Assembly: GCA_046563655.1 (NCBI GenBank)
Contig: JAJCTO010000011.1
Location: 310,001-374,000, forward strand
DNA from: Yuukianura sp. NJ FZ-2021
Lineage: Eukaryota
Direction of reading: 5' to 3'
Length of the DNA: 64,000 bases
In this document: positions 2,562 to 46,600 of the stretch, piece by piece
How positions within the stretch are numbered: the first letter of the stretch is position 1
How the letters are laid out: every line of letters starts with the position of its first letter
Notes under the pieces: model-generated
What the model saw: the letters and a program-made list of their open reading frames with translations, nothing else
The model's database searches: none
Told to the model about the DNA's origin: nothing
Position numbers and translations under genes: made by a program

Positions 2562-2617
2562 TGGCTCAGTGGTTAAGCCATCAATGCTTTTCCACTGGTC
2601 GACTTGGGTTCGCACCC
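2562..2617 (+). promoter_or_regulatory. RNA polymerase III type-2 internal promoter (A and B boxes) of the SINE head; also present in copies 2 and 3
   Basis: TGGCTCAGTGG fits the A-box consensus. GGTTCGCACCC lies in a T-arm-like hairpin (ctggg-ttcgca-cccag in copies 2 and 3). Confidence 0.75.
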
Positions 2618-15391: not shown

Positions 15392-15392
15392 C

Positions 15393-15408
15393 TGGCGACC
15401 GTGACAGG
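15393..15408 (+). promoter_or_regulatory. Primer-binding site, tRNA-Arg(UCG) type
   Basis: TGGCGACCGTGACAGG lies 1 bp after the LTR end. It is complementary to ...CCTGTCACGGTCGCCA, the 3' end I recall for insect tRNA-Arg(UCG). Drosophila 412/mdg1-lineage Gypsy elements use an Arg primer. Confidence 0.8.
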
Positions 15409-16516: not shown

Positions 16517-16758
16517 TTTAGAGAAAAAGCTAGAATCAGAGCTTAAAGAAATATTTAGAGAAAAAGCTAGAATCAGAGCTTAAAGAAAAGAAAAGAGTTT
16601 AATAGTTGAATAGTTGAATCCCTTGACATTGAGAGTCATTAGGACAGAGTCAGAGACAGAGTCAAAGACATAGTCAGAGACCTAATGTAAAGAGACATTG
16701 AGAGTCATTAGGACATAGTCAAAGGCAGAGTCATAGACATAGTCAGAGACCTAATGTA
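16517..16758. repeat. Two local tandem duplications inside the LTR element
   Basis: tttagagaaaaagctagaatcagagcttaaagaaa occurs twice (~16517-16588). gacattgagagtcattaggaca...gtcagagacctaatgtaa occurs twice (~16625-16758), built from gtcagagaca-like subunits. Confidence 0.85.
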
Positions 16759-17280
16759 AGGAGGTTAACTAGTTCAAGCCAAGTTATTGATGTTGTAAGT
16801 TTAGGTTATGTGTTGTTTTGTTAGATTGATACTAAAATATTGATGAGTTAAGAGTTTAAGTAAGTGTTATAGTAACAATGGTTGAAAGTATTATGAAGTT
16901 TATAGATAAAATAGAAAAGTAAGGGACGCATCGAAGGGCAGCGATCCAGAATTTAAGTTTGTACATAAAGTGAAGATATGTTTACTAAATTTTCCCTAGT
17001 TTAATGCACCAATTGTTAAGAATTTTTAAGAATTTACCGTTTATGAGAAAATTTCGGTAAATATAAGGATATTAGTTACGAATTGAGTTGTTATCATATA
17101 AGTTTCAAAGTCTATTTTGCCATTTTGAAGAATAATTACAAGGATAATGCACAAATACTAGTAAATTTAGTCAGGCTATGCCAAGTTTTCAGTTTAGTTA
17201 TTAAGGAAAGAGTTCAAAGGTCAGTCAAAGTGACACAAGGGTCAGCGTAACCCGGTAAAGAGGGCTTTGTCGCAGGAGAA

Positions 17281-17539
17281 TGTGACGGTCTGAGTTATCC
17301 GCCCGTCCGAGGAAGAGGGGGACCGTAGATGACTAGCAGCGGAGCAGCACCAGAGCCACTCAGTTTCTGTCGGACAGGACTCAAGGAAGGGAGCATGGAC
17401 CAGCCACTGCACCTTAGCTCTTAGTTTCATTTCTTTTAGATCTTTATTGTACCAATAAAGATCAGTCTTTTCATTGCACCAGACATGGGAGAGAGCTTTC
17501 AGGTCATTCTTGGGTCAGTGGTGGCCCCGCTACTTCACA
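17281..17539 (+). repeat. 3' LTR (259 bp)
   Basis: Direct repeat of 15139-15391, followed by the ATAC TSD and resumption of SatB in register. Confidence 0.95.
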
Positions 17540-26500: not shown

Positions 26501-29500
26501 CTAAAAACCATGCCGGAAATCATGAAATGGAAGAATTCTATCCGCTGAGCTAGTTGGTCTCTATAGCGCGAAATTTTGTACTAGTTGGTCTCCATCGTGA
26601 ATTTGTAAAATGTTTTGTAGTGTTCATAAGTTTTAGAGGCTGGTTCAGAGGAGTGGGTTTTTACAGAGCGGTCTGCATAAAGTCAAATTTTAAAATGTCC
26701 GTATACCTCCTAATGTCGCCTTAAAGTATCACATTTCGTGTTAGAAAGATTTCTTGCTACACCACGGTTTCTAAAAACCATGCCGGAAATTATGAAATGG
26801 AAGAATTCTACCCGCTGAACTAGTTGGTCTCTATTGCGTGAAATTTTGTACTAGTAGGTCTCCATCGTGAATTTGTAAAATGTTTTGTAGTGTTCATAAA
26901 TTTTAGAGGCTGTTTCAAAGGATTGGGTTTTTACTGAGCGTTCTGATAACGTCAAAATCTAATTGTTCCGTATACCTCCTAATGTCGCCTTGAAGTGTCA
27001 GATTTTGTGTTAGAAATATTTTTGCTACACCATGGTTGCTAAAAACCATGCCGGAAGTCATGAAATGGAAGAATTCTATCCGCCGAACTAGTTGGTCTCT
27101 ATTGCGTGAAATTTTGTACTAGTTGGTCTCCATCGTGAATTTGTAAAATGTTTTGTAGTGTTCATAAGTTTTAGAGGCTGTTTCAGAGGATTGGGTTTTT
27201 ACTGAGCGTTCTGATAACGTCAAAATCTAATTGTTCCGTATACCTCCTAATGTCGCCTTGAAGTGTCAGATTTTGTGTTAGAAATATTTTTTGCTACACC
27301 ATGGTTGCTAAAAACCACGCCGGAAATCATGAAATGGAAGAATTCTATCCGCTGAACTAGTTGGTCTCTATTGCGTGAAATTTTGTACTAGTTGGTCTCC
27401 ATCGTGAATTTGTAAAATGTTTTGTAGTTTTCATGAGTTTTAGAGGCTGGTTCAGAGGAGTGGGTTTTTACTGAGCATTCTGATAACGCCAAAATCTAAA
27501 TGTTCCGTATACCTCCTAATGTCGCTTTGAAGTATCAGATTTTGTGTTAGAAATATTTTTTGCTACACCATGGTTGCTAAAAACCATGCCGGAAATCATG
27601 ACATGGAAGAATTCTATCCGCTGAACTAGTTGGTCTCTATTGCGTGAAATTTTGTACTAGTTGGTCTCCATCGTGAATTTGTAAAATGTTTTGTAGTGTT
27701 CATAAGTTTTAGAGGCTGGTTCAGAGGAGTGGGTTTTTACAGAGCGGTCTGCATAAAGTCAAATTTTAAAATGTTTCGTATACCTCCTAATGTCGCCTTA
27801 AAGTGTCACATTTCGTGTTAGAAAGATTTCTTGCTACACCACGGTTTCTAAAAACCATGCCGGAAATTATGAAATGGAAGAATTCTACCCGCTGAACTAG
27901 TTGGTCTCTATTGCGTGAAATTTTGTACTAGTTGGTCTCCATCGTGAATTTGTAAAATGTTTTGTAGTGTTCATAAATTTTAGAGGCTGTTTCAAAGGAT
28001 TGGGTTTTTACTGAGCGTTCTGATAACGTCAAAATCTAAATGTTCCGTATACCTCCTAATGTCGCCTTGAAGTATCACATTTCGTGTTAGAAAGATTTCT
28101 TGCTACACCACGGTTTCTAAAAACCATGCCGGAAATTATGAAATGGAAGAATTCTACCTGCTGAACTAGTTGGTCTCTATTGCGTGAAATTTTGTACTAG
28201 TTGGTCTCCATCGTGAATTTGTAAAATGTTTTGTAGTGTTCATAAGTTTTAGAGGCTGTTTCAGAGGATTGGGTTTTTACTGAGCGTTCTGATAACGTCA
28301 AAATCTAATTGTTCCGTATACCTCCTAATGTCGCCTTGAAGTGTCAGATTTTGTGTTAGAAATATTTTTTGCTACACCATGGTTGCTAAAAACCACGCCG
28401 GAAATCATGAAATGGAAGAATTCTATCCGCCGAACTAGTTGGTCTCTATTGCGTGAAATTTTGTACTAGTTGGTCTCCATCGTGAATTTGTAAAATGTTT
28501 TGTAGTGTTCATAAGTTTTAGAGGCTGTTTCAGAGGATTGGGTTTTTACTGAGCGTTCTGATAACGTCAAAATCTAATTGTTCCGTATACCTCCTAATGT
28601 CGCCTTGAAGTGTCAGATTTTGTGTTAGAAATATTTTTTGCTACACCATGGTTGCTAAAAACCATGCCGGAAATCATGAAATGGAAGAATTCTATCCGCT
28701 GAACTAGTTGGTCTCTATTGCGTGAAATTTTGTACTAGTTGGTCTCCATCGTGAATTTGTAAAATGTTTTGTAGTGTTCATAAGTTTTAGAGGCTGATTC
28801 AGAAGAGTGGGTTTTTACAGCGCGGTCTGCGTAAAGTCAAATTTTAAAATGTTCCGTATACCTCCTAATGTCTCCTTGAAGTATCACATTTCGTGTTAGA
28901 AAGATTTCTTGCTACACCATGGTTTCTAAAAACCATGCCGGAAATCATGAAATGGAAGAATTCTACCTGCTGAACTAGTTGGTCTCTATTGCGTGAAATT
29001 TTGTACTAGTTGGTCTCCATCGTAAATTTGTAAAATGTTTTGTAGTGTTCATAAGTTTTCGAGGCTGTTTCAGAGGATTGGGTTTTTACTGAGCGTTCTG
29101 ATGACGTCAAAATCTAATTGTTCCGTATACCTCCTAATGTCGCCTTGAAGTGTCAGATTTTGTGTTAGAAATGTTTTGTGCTACACCATGGTTGCTAAAA
29201 ACCACGCCGGAAATCATGAAATGGAAGAATTCTATCCGCTGAACTAGTTGGTCTCTATTGCGTGAAATTTTGTACTAGTTGGTCTCCATCGTGAATTTGT
29301 AAAATGTTTTGTAGTGTTCATAAGTTTTAGAGGCTGATTCAGAAGAGTGGGTTTTTACAGAACGGTCTGCATAACGTCAAATTTTAAAATGTTCCGTATA
29401 CCTCCTAATGTCGCATTGAAGTATCACATTCCGTGTTAGAAATACTTCTTGCTACACCATGGTTTCTAAAAACCATGCCGGAAATCATGAGATGGAAGAA

Positions 29501-32500
29501 TTCTACCTGCTGAACTAGTTGGTTTCTATAGCGTGCAATTTTGTACTAGTTGGTCTCCATCGTGAATTTGTAAAATGTTTTGTAGTGTTCATAAGTTTTA
29601 GAGGCTGGTTCAGAGGAGTGGGTTTTTACAGAGCGGTCTGCATAACGTCAAATTTTAAAATGTTTCGTACACTTCCTAATGTCGCCTTAAAGTATCAGAT
29701 TTTGTGTTAGAAATATTTTTTGCTACACCATGGTTGCTAAAAACCACGCCGGAAATCATGAAATGGAAGAATTCTATCCGCTGAACTAGTTGGTCTCTAT
29801 TGCGTGAAATTTTGTACTAGTTGGTCTAAATCGTGAATTTGTAAAATGTTTTGTAGTGTTCATAAGTTTTAGAGGCTGATTCAGAAGAGTGGGTTTTTAC
29901 AGCGCGGTCTGCGTAAAGTCAAATTTTAAAATGTTCCGTATACCTCCTAATGTCTCCTTGAAGTATCACATTTCGTGTTAGAAAGATTTCTTGCTACACC
30001 ATGGTTTCTAAAAACCATGCCGGAAATCATGAAATGGAAGAATTCTACCTGCTGAACTAGTTGGTCTCTATTGCGTGAAATTTTGTACTAGTTGGTCTCC
30101 ATCGTAAATTTGTAAAATGTTTTGTAGTGTTCATAAGTTTTCGAGGCTGTTTCAGAGGATTGGGTTTTTACTGAGCGTTCTGATGACGTCAAAATCTAAT
30201 TGTTCCGTATACCTCCTAATGTCGCCTTGAAGTGTCAGATTTTGTGTTAGAAATGTTTTGTGCTACACCATGGTTGCTAAAAACCACGCCGGAAATCATG
30301 AAATGGAAGAATTCTATCCGCTGAACTAGTTGGTCTCTATTGCGTGAAATTTTGTACTAGTTGGTCTCCATCGTGAATTTGTAAAATGTTTTGTAGTGTT
30401 CATAAGTTTTAGAGGCTGATTCAGAAGAGTGGGTTTTTACAGAACGGTCTGCATAACGTCAAATTTTAAAATGTTCCGTATACCTCCTAATGTCGCATTG
30501 AAGTATCACATTTCGTGTTAGAAAGATTTCTTGCTACACCATGGTTTCTAAAAACCATGCCGGAAATCATGAAATGGAAGAATTCTACCTGCTGAACTAG
30601 TTGGTCTCTATTGCGTGAAATTTTGTACTAGTTGGTCTCCATCATGAATTTGTAAAATGTTTTGTAGTGTTCATAAGTTTTCGAGGCTGTTTCAGAGGAT
30701 TGGGTTTTTACTGAGCGTTCTGATAACGTCAAAATCTAAATGTTCCGTATACCTCCTAATGTCGCCTTGAAGTGTCAGATTTTGTGTTAGAAATATTTTG
30801 TGCTACACCATGGTTTCTAAAAACCATGCCGGAAATCATGAAATGGAAGAATTTTATCCGCTGAACTAGTTGGTCTCTTTTGCGTGGAATTTTGTACTAG
30901 TTGGTCTCCATCGTGAATTTGTAAAATGTTTTGTAGTGTTCATAAGTTTTAGAGGCTGGTTCAGAGGAGTGGGTTTTTACAGAGCGTTCTGCATAACGTC
31001 AAATTTTAAAATGTTTCGTATACCTCCTAATGTCGCCTTAAAGTATCAGATTTCGTGTTAGAAAGATTTCTTGCTACACCACGGTTTCTAAAAACCATGC
31101 CGGAAATTATGAAATGGAAGAATTCTACCCGCTGAACTAGTTGGTCTCTATTGCGTGAAATTTTGTACTAGTAGGTCTCCATCGTGAATTTGTAAAATGT
31201 TTTGTAGTGTTCATAAATTTTAGAGGCTGTTTCAAAGGAGTGGGTTTTTACAGAGCGGTCTGCATAACGTCAAATTTTAAAATGTTTCGTATACCTCCTA
31301 ATGTCGCCTTAAAGTATCACATTTCGTGTTAGAAAGATTTCTTGCTACACCACGGTTTCTAACAACCATGCCGGAAATTATGAAATGGAAGAATTCTACC
31401 CGCTGAACTAGTTGGTCTCTATTGCGTGAAATTTTGTACTAGTAGGTCTCCATCGTGAATTTGTAAAATGTTTTGTAGTGTTCATAAGTTTTAGAGGCTG
31501 ATTCAGAAGAGTGGGTTTTTACTGAGCGGTCTGTATAACGTCAAAATCTAAATGTTCCGTATGCCTCCAAATGTCGCCTTGAAGTATCAGATTTCGTGTT
31601 AGAAAGATTTCTTGCTACACCATGGTTTCTAAAAACCATGCCGGAAATCATGAAATGGAAGAATTCTACCCGCTGAACTAGTTGCTCTCTATTGCGTGAA
31701 ATTTTGTACTAGTAGGTCTCCATCGTGAATTTGTAAAATGTTTTGTAGTGTTCATAAGTTTTAGAGGCTGATTCAGAAGAGTGGGTTTTTACTGAGCGGT
31801 CTGTATAACGTCAAAATCTAAATGTTCCGTATGCCTCCAAATGTCGCCTTGAAGTATCAGATTTCGTGTTAGAAAGATTTCTTGCTACACCATGGTTTCT
31901 AAAAACCATGCCGGAAATCATGAAATGGAAGAATTCTACCCGCTGAACTAGTTGCTCTCTATTGCGTGAAATTTTGTACTAGTAGGTCTCCATCGTGAAT
32001 TTGTACAATGTTTTGTAGTGTTCATAAGTTTTAGAGGCTGTTTCAAAGGATTGGGTTTTTACTGAGCGTTCTGATAACGTCAAAATCTAAATGTTCCGTA
32101 TACCTCCTAATGTCGCCTTGAAGTATCACATTTCGGGTTAGAAATATTTCTTGCTACACCATGGTTTCTAAAAACCATGCCGGAAATCATGAAATGGAAG
32201 AATTCTATCCGCTGAGCTAGTTGGTCTCTATAGCGCGAAATTTTGTACTAGTTGGTCTCCATCGTGAATTTGTAAAATGTTTTGTAGTGTTCATAAGTTT
32301 TAGAGGCTGGTTCAGAGGAGTGGGTTTTTACAGAGCGGTCTGCATAAAGTCAAATTTTAAAATGTTTCGTATACCTCCTAATGTCGCCTTAAAGTATCAC
32401 ATTTCGTGTTAGAAAGATTTCTTGCTACACCATGGTTTCTAAAAACCATGCCGGAAATCATGAAATGGAAGAATTCTACCCGCTGAACTAGTTGCTCTCT

Positions 32501-33907
32501 ATTGCGTGAAATTTTGTACTAGTAGGTCTCCATCGTGAATTTGTAAAATGTTTTGTAGTGTTCATAAGTTTTAGAGGCTGATTCAGAAGAGTGGGTTTTT
32601 ACTGAGCGGTCTGTATAACGTCAAAATCTAAATGTTCCGTATGCCTCCAAATGTCGCCTTGAAGTATCAGATTTCGTGTTAGAAAGATTTCTTGCTACAC
32701 CATGGTTTCTAAAAACCATGCCGGAAATCATGAAATGGAAGAATTCTACCCGCTGAACTAGTTGCTCTCTATTGCGTGAAATTTTGTACTAGTAGGTCTC
32801 CATCGTGAATTTGTACAATGTTTTGTAGTGTTCATAAGTTTTAGAGGCTGTTTCAAAGGATTGGGTTTTTACTGAGCGTTCTGATAACGTCAAAATCTAA
32901 ATGTTCCGTATACCTCCTAATGTCGCCTTGAAGTATCACATTTCGGGTTAGAAATATTTCTTGCTACACCATGGTTTCTAAAAACCATGCCGGAAATCAT
33001 GAAATGGAAGAATTCTATCCGCTGAGCTAGTTGGTCTCTATAGCGCGAAATTTTGTACTAGTTGGTCTCCATCGTGAATTTGTAAAATGTTTTGTAGTGT
33101 TCATAAGTTTTAGAGGCTGGTTCAGAGGAGTGGGTTTTTACAGAGCGGTCTGCATAACGTCAAATTTTAAAATGTTTCGTATACCTCCTAATGTCGCCTT
33201 AAAGTATCACATTTCGTGTTAGAAAGATTTCTTGCTACACCACGGTTTCTAACAACCATGCCGGAAATTATGAAATGGAAGAATTCTACCCGCTGAACTA
33301 GTTGGTCTCTATTGCGTGAAATTTTGTACTAGTAGGTCTCCATCGTGAATTTGTAAAATGTTTTGTAGTGTTCATAAATTTTAGAGGCTGTTTCAAAGGA
33401 GTGGGTTTTTACAGAGCGGTCTGCATAACGTCAAATTTTAAAATGTTTCGTATACCTCCTAATGTCGCCTTAAAGTATCACATTTCGTGTTAGAAAGATT
33501 TCTTGCTACACCACGGTTTCTAACAACCATGCCGGAAATTATGAAATGGAAGAATTCTACCCGCTGAACTAGTTGGTCTCTATTGCGTGAAATTTTGTAC
33601 TAGTAGGTCTCCATCGTGAATTTGTAAAATGTTTTGTAGTGTTTCAAATCAAAAATCAAAAGTTTGGAAAACACGAAATTTTGCTCCTCAATTTTCCAGT
33701 TTTTTAAGACATTAATTTGTGATCTACCCAACTTTTGCTCATATCGTCCTAAAGCACTTCGTCTACTGATCAACTCGTGACAGGTTTCAAGAAAATACGT
33801 TGCCAGTTCAGCCTGTCCGGTCCTGTTTTGTCACTTGGAAGTCCAGTCACCGTCAACTAAGTTTTCAGCACCAGCGGATCCTTCAACTCATCTCCATAGC
33901 AACAAAT

Positions 33908-36900
33908 ATGACTCAACGAAAATTAAAAAATCGAAGTAAAATGAAATCAACATCTATCTCCTTGACTCCAGCTCCTGATTCTTCATCTGTGCAAACAATC
34001 TCTAAAGTGTCACCAGCTCCAGCCCAGAATGCAGTTTCTTCACCAGTTCCAGCATCAAGTTCCTCCGGGTCCCGTATTACATCCGTTCCAGCATCAAGTG
34101 ATTTCATCATCATTCCAGCGTCAGCTTCAAATGACTACGGTTCCTGTATTGAATCAGTTCCAGCTTCAAATGACTATGGTTCCTGTATTGAATCAGCTCC
34201 AGCTTCAAATGACTATTGTTCCTATATTGAATCAGTTCCAGCTTCAAATGACTACGGTTCCTGTATTGAATCAGTTCCAGCTTCAAGCGACTATGGTTCC
34301 TGTATTGAATCAGTTCCAGCTTCAAACGACTATAGTTCCTGTGTTGAATCAGTTCCAGCTTCAAATGACCCCGGTTCCTGTATTGTGTCAGTTCCAGCTT
34401 CAAATGATCCCGGTTCCTGTATTGATTCAGTTCCAGCTTCAAATGACTATGCTCCAACTTCAAAGGAGTCAGTTCCAGTTTCAAATGATTCCGGTTTCTG
34501 CATTAACTCAACCCCAGCTGCAATTGAATCATTTCCATCTCCAAATGACTCCGGTTCCTGTATTGTGCCAGCTCCAGCGTCAAATGACTTCGGTTGCCGT
34601 GCTGCATCAGCTCCAATCAATGTTATGGCTTCAAGTTCATGCTCAGTCCCAATTACCAATCAACACGTTTCCAATACTCCTTCTCTTACTAGAACACTCC
34701 AGAATCGCAAAATAACAGATGAATGGATTGCTGATAACATCATTTCGTCCGCCAGTGGCTCAATTCGAAAATTAGACGTCAAATCCAAATACCATCAATT
34801 TTGCAACTCTCTCAACATTCGTCCAGTCGTTGACACCACATTCGGTACCAAACTGCGAAAGTTATTCCCTTCAATGTCGACAGTTCGTGCCGGAGGTCGC
34901 CGTCATTCTGAACAGTCCTACTCTGGCATTGCTTGGAAGGATGTTTGCTCTTCACCTGCTCGCAATTCCACAGAAGAAGACCTAGGAAGCATCCTCGCAA
35001 AACTCAAACAATCGACACACACGATGAAGCACGTTCCTAAAGGTGCCAGGACCACTGCCGCGTCCAGGCTTTCAGACTTCATTGATGAAGTGACTTCAAC
35101 TAATTCCGCCGAGTCATGGTCAAACCTCTTGCTTTTCCCATTCTTCGCGTTTCGTCTACCTAAGAAGGCCGACCGTGTCACCAACCTCACCTCCTGGGTA
35201 AAATCCAATATCTGCACCTTGTCACCTTCTTCGGCTCTCAACGTTTCAACGTTAATCTTGGAAACTTCAAGCACTCCACAATCAAATTCAGCCATTCAGT
35301 CCCACATTATTCAATCTAAACTTGCTGATGGAGACATTCACGGTGCAGTTCGTATTTTATGTTCCGATGACTCAATGGCCAATGAAGATTCTTCTACATT
35401 AGACGCTCTTGAACGATTACATCCTCCTTATCCAGTACCACTCCAGTTTCCAGATCGTCAACAATCATCTGAAGTTGTCTTCGACGAACTCGAACTGCTA
35501 AAATCAATCTCTTCTTTTCCGAATGGTTCGGCCGGAGGTCTCGACTCTCTGCGACCTCAAGTACTGAAAGAGCTAACTTCAAAAATTACTGGCGATTCCG
35601 GTCAAAAACTTCTGTCTTCCATAACGAAGCTTGCAAACCTCATCATTAATAACACCATCCCTGAAGTAATCCGTCCGATCTTCTACGGTGCCTCTTTAAT
35701 TGCACTCCAGAAAAAAAAAGGTGGGATCCGCCCTATCGCGATTGGATTGACCTGGCGCCGGATAGCATCAAAGCTTGTCTTATCGAGATCAATGAAAGAC
35801 ATCGTCTCATACCTGAGCCCGGTACAAATTGGGGTAGGAGTCAACAACGGTTCTGAAGCTGCAGCCCACGCCGCTAGGATCTACGTCAATTCTCCACATT
35901 CTTCCAGTAAGGTCATGCTCAAGATTGATTTCAAGAACGCCTTTAACCTCATCAGAAGAGATAAAATGCTAGATTCTGTTAAATCTCTCATTCCCGACTT
36001 CTATAACTTCATCCATCAAGCTTATTCATCAGACTCGAATTTATTTTACGGTTCTTCCAAAATCAAATCGAGCCTTGGAGTCCAACAAGGCGATCCGATC
36101 GGTCCCGCCCTCTTCGCCATCACCATCCAGCCACTGGCAACAGCAATCCAGTCAGAGTTTAACGTATGGTATCTTGACGATTCAACCATTGCCGACAAGC
36201 CTGAAATAGTCCTGAAGTATCTGCAGCATATCACCACCAACGCAGCATCTTTTGGCCTACAACTTAACACACAGAAATATGAGATCATCGTCATCGGTGG
36301 CGATGAAATGGAGTCCAGAGCCATCTCTAGCTCATTTCTTTCGTTCGCACCTGATATACGAGTCTGCAATGAAGAAGACGCCGAACTACTCGGAGCCCCA
36401 TTATCCAAAGCTTCTGGACGACGAATCTTGAAGATGAAGACCGACGATTTCAACAGACTTTCGTCTAAGCTGCTAGCTCTTCCGACTCACGTGGCTTTCT
36501 TCTTACTAAGAGCTTCAATTTCGATTCCAAGACTGACATACTTCCTTCGCTGCGCACCATCATTTCTTGAAGAAGACCTACTGAAAGACTACGATGATTC
36601 TCTTCGTAAAGTTTTGGAAAAAATTCTCAACATAAGCCTTTCTGAAAATGCCTGGATTCAAACATCTCTGCCGGTGGCACAAGGAGGTTTGGGAATCCGC
36701 CAAGCTAACGATTGCGCTACACTCTGTTTTTTGGCTTCAATCTTTAGCTGCGCAGACCTAATCACCTCCTTCCTACCTGGTAACCTATCGCCTTTCGATC
36801 CATCGTACGACTTAGCAACTTTCAAATGGTCCAACGATTTTGATTTTCCATCTAATCACAAAGTTCAGAAGGAATGGGAGATATTAAAATCATCGAAAAT

Positions 36901-37654
36901 TTACACCAGTCTGCTGAACAACTCCACCACTTTGACTGACAAAGCAAGACTAATTGCTGCCGCTGCTGCTCATTCCGGTGATTGGCTGAAGGCCCTACCC
37001 TCTTCACAACTGGGGACTCTTCTATCCAACGAATGCTTCAGAATTTCGTGCTCCTTGCGGCTTGGCACCAACTTATGTCTACCCCACAAATGTCGCTGTG
37101 GTGCAACTGTTAACGAAGACGGTCTTCACGGGCTGAGTTGTCCGAAAAGTGCAGGAAGACACTCAAGACATGGTTCAATCAACGATATTATTGCTCGAGC
37201 CTTTCAAACAGCCGGAGTCCCTAGCCTGAAAGAACCTCCAGGTTGTTCTCGTTCTGATGGAAAACGCCCCGACGGCATCACTTTGATACCTTGGAATACT
37301 GGACGGGACGTCACTTGCCGAGACACTTATGCCAACTCGTACCTCTCCATTTCCTCTTCTTCAAGTGGCTATCCTGCCGCTTTGGCTGAAATCCAGAAAC
37401 ACAAAGTGTATCAAGACCTAAATCATCAATTCATCGTCTCCATCATTGCTGTTGAAACTTCGGGGGTCTTCGGAGCCGAAGGACTAATTCTCATCAGGTC
37501 AATTGGTCAACGTCTTGCCGAGGTCACCGGTGAACTCCGATCCACCAACTTTTTGCTTCAACGGATTAGCATCGCCATTCAACGTGGCAACTCCGCATCA
37601 ATCCTTGGCACTCTTCCCCCGGGGAAAGGATTGGACGAAATTTTTTACCTCTAA
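33908..37654 (+). CDS. Retrotransposon polyprotein (1,248 aa from the first ATG; frame open from TTG 33800): 13-aa repeats, RFX-like winged helix, reverse transcriptase, CCHC knuckle, PD-(D/E)XK restriction-like endonuclease
   Basis: CRE-type RT motifs SAGGLDSLRPQVLK, GASLIALQKKKGGIRPIAIG, KIDFKNAFN, GVQQGDPIGP and WYLDD (~36167-36181); LPVAQGGLGIR; CRC-x9-H-x3-C (37091-37141); RHSRH; DGKRPDG (~37256-37276); AVETSG; QRISIAIQRGN. Confidence 0.92.
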   Translation: MTQRKLKNRSKMKSTSISLTPAPDSSSVQTISKVSPAPAQNAVSSPVPASSSSGSRITSVPASSDFIIIPASASNDYGSCIESVPASNDYGSCIESAPASNDYCSYIESVPASNDYGSCIESVPASSDYGSCIESVPASNDYSSCVESVPASNDPGSCIVSVPASNDPGSCIDSVPASNDYAPTSKESVPVSNDSGFCINSTPAAIESFPSPNDSGSCIVPAPASNDFGCRAASAPINVMASSSCSVPITNQHVSNTPSLTRTLQNRKITDEWIADNIISSASGSIRKLDVKSKYHQFCNSLNIRPVVDTTFGTKLRKLFPSMSTVRAGGRRHSEQSYSGIAWKDVCSSPARNSTEEDLGSILAKLKQSTHTMKHVPKGARTTAASRLSDFIDEVTSTNSAESWSNLLLFPFFAFRLPKKADRVTNLTSWVKSNICTLSPSSALNVSTLILETSSTPQSNSAIQSHIIQSKLADGDIHGAVRILCSDDSMANEDSSTLDALERLHPPYPVPLQFPDRQQSSEVVFDELELLKSISSFPNGSAGGLDSLRPQVLKELTSKITGDSGQKLLSSITKLANLIINNTIPEVIRPIFYGASLIALQKKKGGIRPIAIGLTWRRIASKLVLSRSMKDIVSYLSPVQIGVGVNNGSEAAAHAARIYVNSPHSSSKVMLKIDFKNAFNLIRRDKMLDSVKSLIPDFYNFIHQAYSSDSNLFYGSSKIKSSLGVQQGDPIGPALFAITIQPLATAIQSEFNVWYLDDSTIADKPEIVLKYLQHITTNAASFGLQLNTQKYEIIVIGGDEMESRAISSSFLSFAPDIRVCNEEDAELLGAPLSKASGRRILKMKTDDFNRLSSKLLALPTHVAFFLLRASISIPRLTYFLRCAPSFLEEDLLKDYDDSLRKVLEKILNISLSENAWIQTSLPVAQGGLGIRQANDCATLCFLASIFSCADLITSFLPGNLSPFDPSYDLATFKWSNDFDFPSNHKVQKEWEILKSSKIYTSLLNNSTTLTDKARLIAAAAAHSGDWLKALPSSQLGTLLSNECFRISCSLRLGTNLCLPHKCRCGATVNEDGLHGLSCPKSAGRHSRHGSINDIIARAFQTAGVPSLKEPPGCSRSDGKRPDGITLIPWNTGRDVTCRDTYANSYLSISSSSSGYPAALAEIQKHKVYQDLNHQFIVSIIAVETSGVFGAEGLILIRSIGQRLAEVTGELRSTNFLLQRISIAIQRGNSASILGTLPPGKGLDEIFYL
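34121..34615 (+). repeat. In-frame 39-bp minisatellite encoding (P)ASNDYGSCIESV repeats, about 8 well-conserved and 4 degenerate units
   Basis: The unit ccagcttcaaatgactacggttcctgtattgaatcagtt is repeated in tandem and is visible in the translation. Confidence 0.95.
34709..34939 (+). other. RFX-type winged-helix DNA-binding domain within the retrotransposon ORF (aa ~304-380 of the 1,284-aa frame)
   Basis: EWIADN...GSIRKLDVKSKYHQFCNSLNIRPVVDTTFGTKLRKLFPSMSTVRAGGRRHSEQSYSGIAWK aligns by eye without gaps to the RFX1 DBD as I recall it (QWLLDN...YLLHC...PVNAASFGKLIRSVF...TRRLGTRGNSKYHYYGLRIK). W, DN, Y, C, PV, FG, R, F, T-R-G-R, S, Y-G and K are conserved. Confidence 0.78.
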
Positions 37655-40600
37655 CTTTTCTCAATATATACTCTAAACCTTTTCAACCTGCCCTAGGCAG
37701 GTGTTTGTGAATTCTGTTTAATAAACTTCAAAATTTTGTAGTGTTCATAAGTTTTAGAGGCTGATTCAGAAGAGTGGGTTTTTACTGAGCGGTCTGTATA
37801 ACGTCAAAATCTAAATGTTCCGTATGCCTCCAAATGTCGCCTTGAGGTATCAGATTTCGTGTTAGAAAGATTTCTTGCTACACCATGGTTTCTAAAAACC
37901 ATGCCGGAAATCATGAAATGGAAGAATTCTACCCGCTGAACTAGTTGCTCTCTATTGCGTGAAATTTTGTACTAGTAGGTCTCCATCGTGAATTTGTAAA
38001 ATGTTTTGTAGTGTTCATAAGTTTTAGAGGCTGATTCAGAAGAGTGGGTTTTTACTGAGCGGTCTGTATAACGTCAAAATCTAAATGTTCCGTATGCCTC
38101 CAAATGTCGCCTTGAAGTATCAGATTTCGTGTTAGAAAGATTTCTTGCTACACCATGGTTTCTAAAAACCATGCCGGAAATCATGAAATGGAAGAATTCT
38201 ACCCGCTGAACTAGTTGCTCTCTATTGCGTGAAATTTTGTACTAGTAGGTCTCCATCGTGAATTTGTACAATGTTTTGTAGTGTTCATAAGTTTTAGAGG
38301 CTGTTTCAAAGGATTGGGTTTTTACTGAGCGTTCTGATAACGTCAAAATCTAAATGTTCCGTATACCTCCTAATGTCGCCTTGAAGTATCACATTTCGGG
38401 TTAGAAATATTTCTTGCTACACCATGGTTTCTAAAAACCATGCCGGAAATCATGAAATGGAAGAATTCTATCCGCTGAGCTAGTTGGTCTCTATAGCGCG
38501 AAATTTTGTACTAGTTGGTCTCCATCGTGAATTTGTAAAATGTTTTGTAGTGTTCATAAGTTTTAGAGGCTGGTTCAGAGGAGTGGGTTTTTACAGAGCG
38601 GTCTGCATAAAGTCAAATTTTAAAATGTTTCGTATACCTCCTAATGTCGCCTTAAAGTATCACATTTCGTGTTAGAAAGATTTCTTGCTACACCATGGTT
38701 TCTAAAAACCATGCCGGAAATCATGAAATGGAAGAATTCTACCCGCTGAACTAGTTGCTCTCTATTGCGTGAAATTTTGTACTAGTAGGTCTCCATCGTG
38801 AATTTGTAAAATGTTTTGTAGTGTTCATAAGTTTTAGAGGCTGATTCAGAAGAGTGGGTTTTTACTGAGCGGTCTGTATAACGTCAAAATCTAAATGTTC
38901 CGTATGCCTCCAAATGTCGCCTTGAAGTATCAGATTTCGTGTTAGAAAGATTTCTTGCTACACCATGGTTTCTAAAAACCATGCCGGAAATCATGAAATG
39001 GAAGAATTCTACCCGCTGAACTAGTTGCTCTCTATTGCGTGAAATTTTGTACTAGTAGGTCTCCATCGTGAATTTGTACAATGTTTTGTAGTGTTCATAA
39101 GTTTTAGAGGCTGTTTCAAAGGATTGGGTTTTTACTGAGCGTTCTGATAACGTCAAAATCTAAATGTTCCGTATACCTCCTAATGTCGCCTTGAAGTATC
39201 ACATTTCGGGTTAGAAATATTTCTTGCTACACCATGGTTTCTAAAAACCATGCCGGAAATCATGAAATGGAAGAATTCTATCCGCTGAGCTAGTTGGTCT
39301 CTATAGCGCGAAATTTTGTACTAGTTGGTCTCCATCGTGAATTTGTAAAATGTTTTGTAGTGTTCATAAGTTTTAGAGGCTGGTTCAGAGGAGTGGGTTT
39401 TTACAGAGCGGTCTGCATAACGTCAAATTTTAAAATGTTTCGTATACCTCCTAATGTCGCCTTAAAGTATCACATTTCGTGTTAGAAAGATTTCTTGCTA
39501 CACCACGGTTTCTAACAACCATGCCGGAAATTATGAAATGGAAGAATTCTACCCGCTGAACTAGTTGCTCTCTATTGCGTGAAATTTTGTACTAGTAGGT
39601 CTCCATCGTGAATTTGTAAAATGTTTTGTAGTGTTCATAAGTTTTAGAGGCTGATTCAGAAGAGTGGGTTTTTACTGAGCGGTCTGTATAACGTCAAAAT
39701 CTAAATGTTCCGTATGCCTCCAAATGTCGCCTTGAAGTATCAGATTTCGTGTTAGAAAGATTTCTTGCTACACCATGGTTTCTAAAAACCATGCCGGAAA
39801 TCATGAAATGGAAGAATTCTACCCGCTGAACTAGTTGGTCTCTATTGCGTGAAATTTTGTACTAGTAGGTCTCCATCGTGAATTTGTACAATGTTTTGTA
39901 GTGTTCATAAGTTTTAGAGGCTGTTTCAAAGGATTGGGTTTTTAATGAGCTTTCTGATAACGTCAAAATCTAAATGTTCCGTATACCTCCTAATGTCGCC
40001 TTGAAGTATCACATTTCGTGTTAGAAATATTTCTTGCTACACCATGGTTTCTAAAAACCATGCCGGAAATCATGAAATGGAAGAATTCTATCCGCTGAGC
40101 TAGTTGGTCTCTATAGCGCGAAATTTTGTACTAGTTGGTCTCCATCGTGAATTTGTAAAATGTTTTGTAGTGTTCATAAGTTTTAGAGGCTGGTTCAGAG
40201 GAGTGGGTTTTTACAGAGCGGTCTGCATAACGTCAAATTTTAAAATGTTTCGTATACCTCCTAATGTCGCCTTAAAGTATCACATTTCGTGTTAGAAAGA
40301 TTTCTTGCTACACCACGGTTTCTAACAACCATGCCGGAAATTATGAAATGGAAGAATTCTACCCGCTGAACTAGTTGGTCTCTATTGCGTGAAATTTTGT
40401 ACTAGTAGGTCTCCATCGTGAATTTGTAAAATGTTTTGTAGTGTTCATAAGTTTTAGAGGCTGATTCAGAAGAGTGGGTTTTTACTGAGCGGTCTGTATA
40501 ACGTCAAAATCTAAATGTTCCGTATGCCTCCAAATGTCGCCTTGAAGTATCAGATTTCGTGTTAGAAAGATTTCTTGCTACACCATGGTTTCTAAAAACC

Positions 40601-43600
40601 ATGCCGGAAATCATGAAATGGAAGAATTCTACCCGCTGAACTAGTTGCTCTCTATTGCGTGAAATTTTGTACTAGTAGGTCTCCATCGTGAATTTGTAAA
40701 ATGTTTTGTAGTGTTCATAAGTTTTAGAGGCTGATTCAGAAGAGTGGGTTTTTACTGAGCGGTCTGTATAACGTCAAAATCTAAATGTTCCGTATGCCTC
40801 CAAATGTCGCCTTGAAGTATCAGATTTCGTGTTAGAAAGATTTCTTGCTACACCATGGTTTCTAAAAACCATGCCGGAAATCATGAAATGGAAGAATTCT
40901 ACCCGCTGAACTAGTTGCTCTCTATTGCCTGAAATTTTGTACTAGTAGGTCTCCATCGTGAATTTGTAAAATGTTTTGTAGTGTTCATAAGTTTTAGAGG
41001 CTGTTTCAAAGGATTGGGTTTTTACTGAGCGTTCTGATAACGTCAAAATCTAAATGTTCCGTATACCTCCTAATGTCGCCTTGAAGTATCACATTTCGGG
41101 TTAGAAATATTTCTTGCTACACCATGGTTTCTAAAAACCATGCCGGAAATCATGAAATGGAAGAATTCTATCCGCTGAGCTAGTTGGTCTCTATAGCGTG
41201 AAATTTTGTACTAGTTGGTCTCCATCGTGAATTTGTAAAATGTTTTGTAGTGTTCATAAGTTTTAGAGGCTGGTTCAGAGGAGTGGGTTTTTACAGAGCG
41301 GTCTGCATAACGTCAAATTTTAAAATGTTTTGTATACCTCCTAATGTCGCCTTAAAGTATCACATTTCGTGTTAGAAAGATTTCTTGCTACACCACGGTT
41401 TCTAAAAACCATGCCGGAAATAATGAAATGGAAGAATTCTACCCGCTGGACTAGTTGGTCTCTATTGCGTGAAATTTTGTACTAGTTGGTCTCCATCGTG
41501 AATTTGTAAAATGTTTTGTAGTGTTCATAAATTTTAGAGGCTGTTTCAAAGGATTGGGTTTTTACTGAGCGTTCTGATAACGTCAAAATCTAAATGTTCC
41601 GTATACCTCCTAATGTCGCCTTGAAGTATCACATTTCGTGTTAGAAAGATTTCTTGCTACACCACGGTTTCTAAAAACCATGCCGGAAATCATGAAATGG
41701 AAGAATTGTATCCGCTGAGCTAGTTGGTCTCTATAGCGTGAAATTTTGTACTAGTAGGTCTCCATCGTGAATTTGTAAAATGTTTTGTAGTGTTCATAAG
41801 TTTTAGAGGCTGGTTCAGAGGAGTGGGTTTTTACAGAGCGGTCTGCATAACGTCAAATTTTAAAATGTTTCGTATACCTCCTAATGTCGCCTTAAAGTAT
41901 CACATTTCGTGTTAGAAAGATTTCTTGCTACACCACGGTTTCTAACAACCATGCCGGAAATTATGAAATGGAAGAATTCTACCCGCTGAACTAGTTGGTC
42001 TCTATTGCGTGAAATTTTGTACTAGTAGGTCTCCATCGTGAATTTGTAAAATGTTTTGTAGTGTTCATAAGTTTTAGAGGCTGATTCAGAAGAGTGGGTT
42101 TTTACTGAGCGGTCTGTATAACGTCAAAATCTAAATGTTCCGTATGCCTCCAAATGTCGCCTTGAAGTATCAGATTTCGTGTTAGAAAGATTTCTTGCTA
42201 CACCATGGTTTCTAAAAACCATGCCGGAAATCATGAAATGGAAGAATTCTACCCGCTGAACAAGTTGGTCTCTATTGCGTGAAATTTTTTACTAGTAGTT
42301 TTCCATTGTGAAATTGTAAAATGTTTTGTAGTGTTCATAAGCTTTAGAGGCTGATTCAGAAGAGTGGGTTTTTACTGAGCGGTCTGTATAACGTCAAAAT
42401 CTAAATGTTCCGTATGCCTCCAAATGTCGCCTTGAAGTATCAGATTTCGTGTTAGAAAGATTTCTTGCTACACCATGGTTTCTAAAAACCATGCCGGAAA
42501 TCATGAAATGGAAGAATTCTACCCGCTGAACAAGTTGGTCTCTATTGCGTGAAATTTTTTACTAGTAGTTTTCCATTGTGAAATTGTAAAATGTTTTGTA
42601 GTGTTCATAAGTTTTAGAGGCTGTTTCAAAGGATTGGGTTTTTACTGAGCGTTCTGATAACGTCAAAATCTAAATGTTCCGTATACCTCCTAATGTCGCC
42701 TTGAAGTATCACATTTCGGGTTAGAAATATTTCTTGCTACACCATGGTTTCTAAAAACCATGCCGGAAATCATGAAATGGAAGAATTCTATCCGCTGAGC
42801 TAGTTGGTCTCTATAGCGTGAAATTTTGTACTAGTTGGTCTCCATCGTGAATTTGTAAAATGTTTTGTAGTGTTCATAAGTTTTAGAGGCTGGTTCAGAG
42901 GAGTGGGTTTTTACAGAGCGGTCTGCATAACGTCAAATTTTAAAATGTTTTGTATACCTCCTAATGTCGCCTTAAAGTATCACATTTCGTGTTAGAAAGA
43001 TTTCTTGCTACACCATGGTTTCTAAAAACCATGCCGGAAATCATGAAATGGAAGAATTCTACCCGCTGAACTAGTTGGTCTCTATTGCGTGAAATTTTAT
43101 ACTAGTTGGTCTCCATCGTGAATTTGTAAAATGTTTTGTAGTGTTCATAAGTTTTAGAGGCAGGTTCAGAGGAGTGGGTTTTTACAGAGCGGTCTGCATA
43201 ACGTCAAATTTTAAAATGTTCCGTATGCCTCCTAATGTCGCCTTGAAGTATCAGATTTCGTGTTAGAAAGATTTCTTGCTACACCATGGTTTCTAAAAAC
43301 CATGCCGGAAATCATGAAATGGAAGAATTCTACCCGCTGAACTAGTTGCTCTCTATTGCGTGAAATTTTGTACTAGTAGGTCTCCATCGTGAATTTGTAA
43401 AATGTTTTGTAGTGTTCATACGTTTTAGAGGCTGTTTCAGAGGATTGGGTTTTTACTGAGCGTTCTGATAACGTCAAAATCTAAATGTTCCGTATACCTC
43501 CTAATGTCGCCTTGAAGTGTCAGATTTTGTGTTAGAAATATTTTGTGCTACACCATGGTTGCTAAAAACCACGCCGGAAATCATGCAATGGAAGAATTCT

Positions 43601-46600
43601 ATCCGCTGAACTAGTTGGTCTCTTTTGCGTGGAATTTTGTACTAGTTGGTCTCCATCGTGAATTTGTAAAATGTTTTGTAGTGTTCATAAGTTTTAGAGG
43701 CTGGTTCAGAGGAGTGGGTTTTTACAGAGCGGTCTGCATAAAGTCAAATTTTAAAATGTTTCGTATACCTCCTAATGTCGCCTTAAAGTATCACATTTCG
43801 TGTTAGAAAGATTTCTTGCTACACCACGGTTTCTAAAAACCATGCCGGAAATTATGAAATGGAAGAACTCTACCCGCTGAACTAGTTGGTCTCTATTGCG
43901 TGAAATTTTGTACTAGTAGGTCTCCATCGGGAATTTGTAAAATGTTTTGTAGTGTTCATAAATTTTAGAGGCTGTTTCAAAGGATTGGGTTTTTACTGAG
44001 CGTTCTGATAACGTCAAAATCTAAATGTTCCGTATACCTCCTAATGTCGCCTTGAAGTATCACGTTTCGGGTTAGAAATATTTCTTGCTACACCATGGTT
44101 TCTAAAAACCATGCCGGAAATCATGAAATGGAAGAATTCTACCTGCTGAACTAGTTGGTCTCTATTGCGTGAAATTTTGTACTAGTTGGTCTCCATCGTG
44201 AATTTGTAAAATGTTTTGTAGTGTTCATAAGTTTTAGAGGCTGTTTCAGAGGATTGGGTTTTTACTGAGCGTTCTGATAACGTCAAAATCTAAATGTTCC
44301 GTATACCTCCTAATGTCGCCTTGAAGTATCACATTTCGGGTTAGAAATATTTCTTGCTACACCATGGTTTCTAAAAACCATGCCGGAAATCATGAAATGG
44401 AAGAATTCTATCCGCTGAGCTAGTTGGTCTCTATAGCGTGAAATTTTGTACTAGTTGGTCTCCATCGTGAATTTGTAAAATGTTTTGTAGTGTTCATAAG
44501 TTTTAGAGGCTGGTTCAGAGGAGTGGGTTTTTACAGAGCGGTCTGCATAACGTCAAATTTTAAAATGTTTCGTATACCTCCTAATGTCGCCTTAAAGTAT
44601 CACATTTCGTGTTAGAAAGATTTCTTGCTACACCACGGTTTCTAAAAACCATGCCGGAAATTATGAAATGGAAGAAGTCTATCCGCTGAGCTAGTTGGTC
44701 TCTATTGTGTGAAATTTTGTACTAGTTGGTCTCCATAGTGAATTTGTAAAATGTTTTGTAGTGTTCATAAGTTTTAGAGGCTGATTCAGAAGAGTGGGTT
44801 TTTACTGAGCTTTCTGATAACGTCAAAATCTAAATGTTCCGTATACCTCCTAATGTCGCCTTGAAGTATCACATTTCGTGTTAGAAATATTTTTTGCTAC
44901 ACCATGGTTTCTAAAAACCATGCCGGAAATCATGAAATGGAAGAATTCTATCCGCTGAGCTAGTTGGTCTCTATAGCGTGAAATTTTGTACTAGTTGGTC
45001 TCCATCGTGAATTTGTAAAATGTTTTGTAGTGTTCATAAGTTTTAGAGGCTGGTTCAGAGGAGTGGGTTTTTACAGAGCGGTCTGCATAACGTCAAATTT
45101 TAAAATGTTTCGTATACCTCCTAATGTCGCATTAAAGTATCACATTTTGTGTTAGAAAGATTTCTTGCTACACCACGGTTTCTAAAAACCATGCCGGAAA
45201 TCATGAAATGGAAGAATTGTATCCGCTGAGCTAGTTGGTCTCTATAGCGTGAAATTTTGTACTAGTAGGTCTCCATCGTGAATTTGTAAAATGTTTTGTA
45301 GTGTTCATAAATTTTAGAGGCTGTTTCAAAGGATTGGGTTTTTACTGAGCGTTCTGATAACGTCAAAATCTAAATGTTCCGTATACCTCCTAATGTCGCC
45401 TTGAAGTATCACATTTCGGGTTAGAAATATTTCTTGCTACACCATGGTTTCTAAAAACTATGCCGGAAATCATGAAATGGAAGAATTCTACCTGCTGAAC
45501 TAGTTGGTCTCTATTGCGTGAAATTTTGTACTAGTTGGTCTCCATCGTGAATTTGTAACATGTTTTGTAGTGTTCATAAGTTTTAGAGGCTGTTTCAGAG
45601 GATTGGGTTTTTACTGAGCGTTCTGATAACGTCAAAATCTAAATGTTCCGTATACCTCCTAATGTCGCCTTGAAGTATCAGATTTTGTGTTAGAAATATT
45701 TTTTGCTACACCATGGTTGCTAAAAACCATGCCGGAAATCATGAAATGGAAGAATTCTACCTGCTGAACTAGTTGGTCTCTATTGCGTGAAATTTTGTAC
45801 TAGTTGGTCTCCATCGTGAATTTGTAAAATGTTTTGTAGTGTTCATAAGTTTTAGAGGCTGGTTCAGAGGAGTGGGTTTTTACAGAGCGGTCTGCATAAC
45901 GTCAAATTTTAAAATGTTTCGTATACTTCCTAATGTCGCCTTAAAGTATCACATTTCGTGTTAGAAAGATTTCTTGCTACACCATGGTTTCTAAAAACCA
46001 TGCCGGAAATCATGAAATGGAAGAATTCTACCTGCTGAACTAGTTGGTTTCTATTGCGTGAAATTTTGTACTAGTTGGTCTCCATCATGAATTTGTAAAA
46101 TGTTTTGTAGTGTTCATAAGTTTCCGAGGCTGTTTCAGAGGATTGGGTTTTTACTGAGCGTTCTGATAACGTCAAAATCTAAATGTTCCGTATACCTCCT
46201 AATGTCGCCTTGAAGTGTCAGATTTTGTGTTAGAAATATTTTTTGCTACACCATGGTTGCTAAAAACCATGCCGGAAATCATGAAATGGAAGAATTCTAC
46301 CTGCTGAACTAGTTGGTCTCTATTGCGTGAAATTTTGTACTAGTTGGTCTCCATCGTGAATTTGTAAAATGTTTTGTAGTGTTCATAAGTTTTAGAGGCT
46401 GGTTCAGAGGAGTGGGTTTTTACAGAGCGGTCTGCATAACGTCAAATTTTAAAATGTTTCGTATACCTCCTAATGTCGCCTTGATGTATCACATTTCGTG
46501 TTAGAAAGATTTCTTGCTACACCATGGTTTCTAAAAACCATGCCGGAAATCATGAAATGGAAGAATTCTACCTGCTGAACTAGTTGGTTTCTATTGCGTG

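Follow-up and report, generated by a model that had tools for sequence, protein, structure and literature searches.

An RFX-type winged-helix domain upstream of the reverse transcriptase in a lineage of retrotransposons that encode a restriction-like endonuclease

Long interspersed elements (LINEs) that encode a restriction-like endonuclease (RLE), such as R2, serve as the model for site-specific retrotransposition and are under development for gene insertion. The R2 elements R2Bm, R2Tg and R2Pm (8gh6, 9dou, 9nl2) have one open reading frame (ORF) that encodes an N-terminal DNA-binding module, a reverse transcriptase (RT), a CCHC zinc knuckle and a PD-(D/E)XK RLE, and zinc-finger and Myb modules at the N-terminus are credited with the choice of target in LINEs of this type. 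The DNA examined here is a stretch of 64,000 nucleotides from Yuukianura sp. NJ FZ-2021 (contig JAJCTO010000011.1, positions 310,001 to 374,000), called the window below. It contains a 4090-bp retrotransposon without long terminal repeats (a non-LTR retrotransposon) that has this same general plan, and in which the N-terminal position is occupied by a DNA-binding domain (DBD) of the RFX type.

Some exchange of N-terminal modules has been described for RLE elements. The N-termini of NeSL and Utopia elements vary, carrying one to three zinc fingers, an Ulp1 protease or RNase H (PMC4640811), the number of zinc fingers in BLAG elements has been altered by recombination (PMC7650587), and R2 elements show variation in their zinc fingers and Myb (PMC13188248). 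The element in the window resembles NeSL/Utopia and BLAG in having undergone such an exchange and differs from them in the module involved, and no winged-helix or RFX module is mentioned in any of the three papers. A retrotransposon-encoded RFX domain was likewise not found described in the full-text literature searched, in part judged by titles and the opening of abstracts; this scope does not take in Repbase Reports, Dfam and most subscription journals. An initial annotation of this DNA, made from the sequence alone, had stated that the architecture was not familiar from described families, and the literature result agrees with it.

The RFX domain and the domain order of the element

The features of the element, in window coordinates, are as follows.

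33644..37733, + strand: whole non-LTR retrotransposon copy, 4090 bp, bounded by the departure from and the return to satellite sequence and ending in ...AATAAACTTCAAAA
33644..33907, + strand: 5' untranslated region (other copies resemble the window copy only from 33657 or later)
33908..37654, + strand: single ORF that counts 1248 codons from its first ATG, stop codon not included
34122..34449, + strand: 39-bp tandem repeat, 8.4 copies (Tandem Repeats Finder, TRF), encoding a 13-residue repeat (SVPASNDYGSCIE-like)
34712..34939, + strand: RFX-type winged-helix DBD, residues 315-390 (Pfam PF02257, AlphaFold2, Foldseek)
35036..35707, + strand: conserved pre-RT region, from the PKGAR motif up to the RT, common to the whole element family
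35708..36292, + strand: RT, residues 647-841, with YLDD at 36170-36181 (Pfam RVT_1, 66.3 bits)
37091..37141, + strand: CCHC zinc knuckle, C1108, C1110, H1120 and C1124 (invariant alignment columns)
37157..37465, + strand: restriction-like PD-(D/E)XK endonuclease region (RH..ND, E-P, RPDG, D-x-T, K...Y, E-T)
37655..37733, + strand: 3' untranslated region with AATAAA and a tail of four A

The stop-to-stop frame that holds the ORF (33770-37654, + strand) is open for 1294 codons, with its first ATG at 33908; at a threshold of 120 codons, one ORF spans the element on this strand. With Pfam, the complete ORF yields two families only at E ≤ 1. One is RVT_1 (E 4e-18), and the other is RFX_DNA_binding, which at 43.3 bits (E 5.6e-11) exceeds its gathering score of 27 and is matched over profile positions 3-78 of 79. 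When a 124-residue excerpt is scanned alone, the RFX score is 48.3 bits. The initial annotation had recognised an RFX signature in a segment of about 77 residues, which it placed at 34709-34939; the end coincides with that of the Pfam match, and the start deviates by one codon. It had also noticed the lack of C2H2 or Myb motifs upstream of the RT, in agreement with the absence of any such family from the ORF at E ≤ 1 and of any match to a C2H2 regular expression there. At the same threshold the ORF contains no enzyme family besides RVT_1, no N-terminal APE endonuclease, and neither the BCD dimerisation domain nor the RFX5_N domain of RFX transcription factors.

The resemblance to RFX proteins is also apparent in searches that do not start from the Pfam profile. 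When the 1294-residue frame is compared by phmmer with the sequences in the PDB, the RFX5 DBD ranks first (8zjr_M, E 8.3e-8, residues 304-397), ahead of the R2 protein 9nl2 (E 5.6e-7, RT only) and LINE-1 ORF2p. A phmmer search of the 124-residue region among 1.84 billion representatives gives 100 matches at E ≤ 1e-3, of which 10 have E ≤ 1e-10, and all 28 of the matches that were scanned with Pfam carry RFX_DNA_binding above the cut-off. These 28 include RFX1-3-like proteins with BCD_RFX, RFX5/7-like proteins with RFX5_N, and one protein (P0127) that combines RFX with RVT_1. A match of this strength goes far beyond what chance would produce. The top-scoring matches of the region, also among these 28, are seven proteins of about 870-1090 residues (P0122-P0126, P0128 and P0129) with four to five tandem RFX domains each, an unusual architecture.

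An AlphaFold2 model of the 124-residue region, based on an alignment of 31 sequences (A1), has a mean predicted local distance difference test score (pLDDT) of 87.6. A Foldseek comparison of this model with the PDB leads to RFX structures. The best match is RFX5 in a nucleosome-bound complex (8zjr_M; E 3.2e-6, TMt 0.90, root-mean-square deviation (rmsd) 1.1 Å, 80 columns), followed by the RFX1 DBD in its cocrystal with an X-box (1dp7_P; E 6.5e-5, TMt 0.88, rmsd 1.4 Å). These are the only two matches at E ≤ 0.001, and the next has E 0.11 and TMt 0.39. The alignment given to AlphaFold2 contained true RFX homologues, such that the fold match corroborates the sequence match without being independent evidence.

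A segment of this kind might instead be a generic winged helix, related to those of Cdc6, D5 primases or PadR-like proteins, that merely looks similar to RFX. Host RFX domains do give weak Pox_D5 and Cdc6_C matches, and PadR, Cdc6 and AsfvPrimPol are found among the lower Foldseek ranks at E 0.1-0.5. However, the only family threshold passed by the window protein in this region is that of RFX_DNA_binding, over the full profile length, with DUF768 (E 0.2) as the sole alternative. In addition, the next fold match trails the two RFX structures by over three orders of magnitude in E, and TMt is 0.88-0.90 for those two versus at most 0.43 for the others. This causes us to regard a generic winged helix as highly improbable. 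On the combined testimony of profile and predicted fold, 34712-34939 encodes a genuine RFX-type winged helix. It shares with the RFX1-3 and RFX5/7 transcription factors a homologous DBD of about 76 residues, the same predicted fold, and the scaffold residues W, Y, C, (F/L)GK, FP, R.G and GI. It differs from them in that BCD and RFX5_N are lacking, the wing is only partly kept and the domain is fused to a retrotransposon polyprotein.

The RFX domain is preceded by a low-complexity N-terminal spacer, formed at 34122-34449 by about eight 13-residue repeats. The length of this tandem repeat varies among copies, since an in-frame skip of 255 bases, from 34195 to 34451, is seen in contigs of three sequencing runs. 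In relatives this position is taken by a PHD finger or by other sequence of low complexity.

Downstream of the RFX domain, the pre-RT region has invariant columns from P423, A426 and R427 through G590 and R595 in an alignment of eight proteins (A2). All 17 aligned C-termini, and likewise all 8 proteins of the RFX lineage that were compared, share without variation the four CCHC residues as well as the RH..ND, E-P, RPDG, D1180-x-T, K...Y and E-T motifs of the RLE region. The fold of the RLE was modelled on the C-terminal 208 residues of L003, which is the closest metagenome relative with an intact region and is 59% identical. The top seven PDB matches of this model (pLDDT 82.7) are all R2 retrotransposon proteins, with E from 2.1e-5 to 3.8e-3, and nothing else is matched at E ≤ 0.004. 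Next in rank are Prp8 and bunyaviral cap-snatching endonucleases, which we take to be related PD-(D/E)XK-type folds. A reservation is that this fold is seen on a relative and not on the window copy, which has a deletion in the region. The element is a structurally complete copy of a single-ORF, RLE-encoding non-LTR retrotransposon with an intact ORF, and thus belongs to the group that comprises R2, CRE, HERO, NeSL and R4.

Relatives and history of the RFX domain

Relatives were collected by a search with residues 310-1294, which found 318 proteins at E ≤ 1e-3, and the best 120 of these 318 were examined. Precomputed Pfam annotation places RFX in two of the 120, P0003 (Folsomia candida) and P0005, and a Pfam rescan of 44 of them at E ≤ 0.01 places it in four. 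The Pfam scores lie above the cut-off for P0003 (32.4 bits) and P0005 (43.2 bits) and below it for P0002 (18.9 bits) and P0009 (20.6 bits). We also used a profile of our own, prepared from alignment A1, in which the window and several element fragments are included; those rows match it by construction, while P0002-P0005, P0007, P0009, P0127 and P0140 are outside its training set. This profile detects RFX in 7 of the 121 family proteins P0001-P0121 (P0001, P0002, P0003, P0004, P0005, P0007 and P0009), with E 8e-14 for P0002 and 1.4e-8 for P0009, and in all seven extra rows (P0127, P0133, P0137, P0140, P0143, P0180 and P0199). P0004 and P0007 are detected by it alone.

A profile search for longer proteins added three Folsomia candida proteins with both RFX and RVT_1 (P0221, P0222 and P0223, with Pfam RFX scores of 31.8, 41.8 and 44.7 bits). 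Both domains reach the Pfam cut-off in the window protein and in P0003, P0005, P0127, P0221, P0222 and P0223. There are 11 full-length or near-full-length elements, including the window element, in which RFX is located upstream of the RT, and four of the relatives among them are Folsomia candida proteins. The same order is found in 3 of 80 metagenome loci (L062, L001 and L002), all from one data set, on contigs of about the length of the element. In the short proteins P0133, P0138, P0143, P0180, P0199 and P0213 the RFX domain runs straight into the 'PTLRRCPKGAR' region. The ESM Atlas offered unnamed RVT_1 clusters only, with scores of 0.84-0.90, and a word-indexed protein search with residues 305-470 gave 334 candidates, none at E ≤ 1e-5; as this search also missed known relatives, it is uninformative.

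Relatives that keep the RFX domain are 42-54% identical over the RT-RLE part and have the domain at the same place. This bears on whether the segment might be a recent chimera or an assembly artefact confined to one copy, such as an RFX exon that was captured from the host and has no function there. Such an explanation draws only on the unusual architecture and found no support. It is refuted by the conserved lineage, which comes from several sources that include the four Folsomia candida proteins and the three metagenome loci. In addition, contigs of three runs span 34451-35122 or more, and thus cross the domain and its junctions, and the RFX domains of the elements group together on a long stem of their own, separate from the RFX1-3-like and RFX5/7-like domains of hosts. 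A chimera or artefact can hardly be credited on this evidence. The RFX-RT-CCHC-RLE architecture, which had been proposed in the initial annotation, and its conservation are established.

Two close relatives, P0006 and P0010, carry C2H2 fingers at the place equivalent to that of RFX, which indicates that the module exchange is real and bears out the earlier suggestion that this lineage captured a different DNA-binding module. The further suggestion that the RFX domain stands in place of zinc fingers holds for the window ORF as far as C2H2 and Myb are concerned; it does not extend to zinc fingers of every kind in the lineage, because in six sequences the RFX domain is itself preceded by a PHD zinc finger. 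These are the elements P0003 and P0005, the fragments P0137, P0143 and P0182, and the locus L062. No PHD finger is seen in the window protein, P0002 or P0127.

The wider RT-RLE family is present in Folsomia, Plutella, Mythimna, Nymphon and Ephydatia, and its ends are strikingly modular, with PHD alone, an OTU protease with C2H2 fingers, SAP, C2H2 fingers, or a C-terminal ubiquitin hydrolase. Specifically, an N-terminal OTU protease with C2H2 fingers is found in P0012 and P0015, an N-terminal SAP domain in P0065, and a C-terminal ubiquitin carboxyl-terminal hydrolase (UCH) in P0027, P0029, P0082, P0091 and P0101.

The history of the domain was approached with two trees. The RT-RLE tree has 68 rows and 880 columns downstream of RFX, with the RFX columns excluded, and was computed with IQ-TREE (quick, LG+G4). 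All eight RFX rows fall into one group of 11 rows, supported by a Shimodaira-Hasegawa-like approximate likelihood ratio test (SH-aLRT) value of 87, and the window element, P0002 and P0127 join at 100. The other three rows of the group are P0006 and P0010, with their C2H2 fingers, and P0008, a Folsomia protein short at its N-terminus and placed as the sister of P0003. By parsimony the RFX label requires two changes on this tree, only one of which is forced by well-supported branches, and none of 500 label shuffles needed as few.

The RFX-domain tree covers 134 domains over 79 columns, and many of its forks are unresolved. In this separate tree against host RFX domains, a comparison that the initial annotation had called for, 15 of 17 element-labelled domains are united with the fragments P0131 and P0132 in one clade, which has an SH-aLRT value of 97 and a stem of length 0.44. 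Its nearest joins are weak ones, at 79 and 76, to P0215 (RFX1-3-like), P0211 and P0204. Because the element-borne domains form essentially one clade, the capture of RFX appears old and was probably single. The two trees point to vertical inheritance of RFX with the RT and to later exchange for C2H2 in some branches. Two features of the trees argue against so simple a history. The C2H2 rows P0006 and P0010 nest within the RFX group, which implies at least one loss or swap, or else poorly resolved branching, and the element-labelled domains P0007 and P0140 lie outside the clade on long branches.

The insertion site and the state of the window copy

The window is mainly satellite DNA and contains two repeats, of 494-497 bp and 269-271 bp (TRF). 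The element is located within an array of the latter.

17540..33643, strand (.): upstream part of the host satellite array (TRF: period 269, 59.7 copies, 94% matches)
33632..33643, + strand: left copy of a 12-bp target-site duplication, TTTTGTAGTGTT (motif spacing, empty-site contig)
37734..37745, + strand: right copy of the 12-bp target-site duplication (junction analysis, empty-site contig)
37734..63843, strand (.): downstream part of the same satellite array (TRF: period 271, 96.6 copies)

Each satellite monomer has one copy of the motif TTTTGTAGTGTT, which adds up to 156 copies in the window, and neighbouring copies are about 270 bp apart. There is a single exception to this spacing, between 33632 and 37734, where the interval is 4102 bp. 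Since 4102 is the sum of 4090 and 12, the insert corresponds to 33644-37733 and is accompanied by a 12-bp target-site duplication. Satellite sequence is left at 33644 and resumed at 37734, and an empty site is represented by a contig from run X2 that connects 33631 to 37734, wherein the 12 letters fit both sides. The G+C content of the element is 0.45, compared with 0.37-0.38 in the flanks. The marks of target-primed reverse transcription are thus present in the form of the 12-bp duplication, the empty-site joint, variable 5' ends, and AATAAA followed by four A.

No Rfam family and no tRNA was found in the whole window (0 matches in the Rfam and tRNA scans), and the Rfam scan likewise shows no rRNA there. 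The host repeat is thus a plain satellite and not an RNA-gene array. The second satellite, with a period of 494-497 bp and 95-97% matches, extends over 1-2559, 4958-9926 and 10476-14878 and is broken at 2560-4957, 9927-10475 and 14879-17539. The target motif of the 270-bp satellite is present already at 15045.

Contigs from four sequencing runs were aligned to the element, which is multicopy under two organism labels. Aligned pieces that are at least 99% alike number 52 of 113 in run X1 and 27 of 43 in run X2. The likeness of other copies starts at 33657, 33667, 33691 or 33728, with unlike sequence before these points, and at the 3' end some copies diverge after 37709 or 37725. Most copies have four additional bases after 33856. 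The first 13 bases of the window copy (33644-33656) are absent from the other copies; they may be bases added at the 5' junction, or the other copies may be slightly shortened.

There are 38 listed single-base copy variants in the ORF, of which 18 are synonymous and 20 non-synonymous. As a general figure, unconstrained decay would leave roughly a quarter of changes silent. Measured against that figure, silent changes appear to be in excess. Only four of the listed variants are located within the RFX domain (two silent and two conservative), which is too few for dN/dS.

The window copy itself shows signs of damage. It lacks 12 bases (four codons) after 37304 that are present in the main contigs of runs X1, X2 and X3, and the resulting four-residue gap, in the region of residues 1178-1180, directly precedes the invariant D1180 and is seen in the window copy alone, both among 17 and among 8 aligned sequences. 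It also has Y554 (35429) and Y837 (36279), where the main contigs of three organism-labelled runs have H and C, respectively. The gap site and residues 554 and 837 are invariant or nearly so in relatives. Because the deletion affects the endonuclease core and the private changes fall at conserved sites, the window copy is probably inactive and no longer autonomous, and it probably descends, in disabled form, from a family that was active until recently.

The locus might otherwise be taken for a domesticated host gene, in which an RFX transcription factor has been fused to an RT and which is not mobile. Its ORF is intact, and the database names of P0222 and P0223 are of a kind that would suit such a gene, one of these Folsomia relatives being called 'RFX-like transcription factor daf-19' in NCBI. 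However, domestication does not agree with the 12-bp target duplication, the precise break of one satellite monomer and the empty-site contig, nor with the many diverged copies that differ in their flanks and 5' ends. RT, CCHC and RLE are moreover all present, and the window copy bears the damaging private changes described above. We therefore judge a domesticated gene to be very unlikely.

Relation to described clades and possible role of the RFX domain

With R2 the element has in common the single ORF and its domain order, the C-terminal fold as modelled on the family member L003, and the marks of target-primed reverse transcription. It differs in that the N-terminus bears an RFX winged helix, alone or together with PHD, in the place of the C2H2 and Myb modules of R2. 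Other differences are that its RT is only distantly alike, that a 12-bp duplication was made, and that R2 targets 28S rDNA whereas copies of this family are found in a satellite or at varied sites. The element is not a member of the R2 clade, as no zinc finger or Myb is matched at E ≤ 1, there is no rDNA in the window, and the RT is only remotely alike. BLAG membership was set aside, as BLAG groups with R2 (PMC7650587), to which the RT found here bears only a remote likeness.

Insertion of every CRE and R4 element known so far duplicates the target, and the classical CRE elements (CRE1/2, SLACS and CZAR) target spliced-leader (mini-exon) genes (PMC3636483). The element, which the initial annotation had called CRE-like, resembles CRE in being single-ORF and RLE-encoding and in having a target-site duplication, a feature that is not exclusive to CRE. 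It differs in that the insertion is in a 270-bp satellite that has no Rfam family and is not a spliced-leader gene, and in that other copies have other flanks. HERO comprises many non-specific families and some that are microsatellite-specific (PMC4640811). HERO elements are likewise RLE-encoding and have a single ORF, and the varied flanks of other copies are compatible with this clade. For neither HERO nor CRE was an RFX domain found reported in the literature searched. Relatives have received 'SLACS', 'R2DM' and 'LINE-1 ORF2' as automatic names, which do not agree with one another. The metazoan spread of the wider family fits HERO. Judged from the published descriptions of the clades, HERO seems at least as likely a home as CRE.

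The RFX domain fills the slot in which sister elements have C2H2 fingers, and DNA anchoring is the simplest reading of its role. The winged helix would anchor the element protein on double-stranded DNA near the nick site and would thereby bring the RLE into place for nicking of the first strand and for target-primed reverse transcription. A PHD finger, where present, would add a chromatin contact. By analogy with other RLE elements, we consider the RFX domain to be a candidate module for engagement of the target DNA, with a probability of roughly 55%.

Several observations weigh against this reading. Of the 156 copies of the target motif that the window contains, only one is occupied. As the contigs of other copies enter non-satellite flanks (at 33657, 33667, 33691, 33728 and 37725), insertion is unlikely to be strictly site-specific. 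Furthermore, of the host wing motif RRLG.RG.SKY.Y, which is kept at 85% in 69 host domains, only R..G...GI.W is kept at 60% in the clade of 17 element domains. The supposition of the initial annotation that the element may have its own target preference finds no support in the single occupied monomer and the other flanks of other copies.

These same observations would suit an RFX domain that is kept for a role other than targeting. For example, the domain could bind the element's own 5' region, act in transcription, mimic or compete with host RFX proteins, or, together with PHD, tether the ribonucleoprotein to chromatin in general, and integration would be essentially untargeted. PHD fingers are commonly histone-tail readers, and in the six sequences in which PHD precedes RFX, a chromatin contact may be added. 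HERO-type RLE elements are mostly non-specific (PMC4640811), which also fits such a role. However, the N-terminal DNA-binding modules of studied RLE elements serve target engagement (PMC13188248), the RFX domain is in exactly the C2H2 slot of close relatives, and no data in the analysis point to promoter binding. We consider a non-targeting role unlikely, if less so than the alternatives discussed in the preceding sections, and retain target-DNA engagement as the preferred reading.

In RFX factors the major groove is contacted by wing 1 and the minor groove by helix 3, with nine contact residues in these two parts (PMC2533330). The wing of the window protein keeps R-x-G-x-R-x-x-S...Y-x-G-I of the host pattern RRLG.RG.SKY.Y.GI, with E-Q replacing the host K-Y. 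This partial retention fits a changed specificity and equally a relaxed constraint. Because wing residues that are near-invariant in hosts are only partly kept, the sequence bound by the RFX domain of the element is probably not the classical X-box, and it may vary between sublineages. The satellite monomer has no match to the strict X-box consensus. A loose X-box-like palindrome, GTTTCTAA(A/C)AAC, is present at 33506-33517, once per 270-bp monomer and 127 bp upstream of the insertion point. It was dropped as evidence, as at least one such match is found in 97 of 2000 shuffled monomers, which is within chance.

Proteins that combine RFX with an RT are already public but under misleading names. 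The four Folsomia proteins P0222, P0223, P0221 and P0003, all of which have this combination, bear as public names 'RFX-like transcription factor daf-19', 'RFX-type winged-helix domain-containing protein', 'LINE-1 ORF2 protein' and 'R2DM pol polyprotein'. Because Folsomia candida proteins with RFX and RT carry RFX names, censuses of transcription factors that are based on PF02257 may count transposon proteins.

The occurrence of an RFX winged helix in the N-terminal slot of an RLE element widens the known repertoire of targeting modules. The RFX fold binds DNA mainly via a wing in the major groove. Such a lineage also indicates that a module of quite different architecture is tolerated by the RT-RLE core. 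The lineage provides natural chimeras for testing how target engagement is coupled to nicking, which should interest transposon biologists and engineers of R2-like insertion tools. A more far-reaching possibility, which we put forward only tentatively and think doubtful as it stands, is that a metazoan lineage of RLE-encoding LINEs swapped its zinc-finger targeting module for a captured RFX domain, often together with PHD, and kept it through deep divergence while the wing diversified towards new DNA or chromatin preferences. If this is true, the lineage would be a natural experiment in which an R2-like integration machine has been retargeted by the swap of a DNA-binding domain, and would offer a template for engineered site-specific retrotransposon tools.

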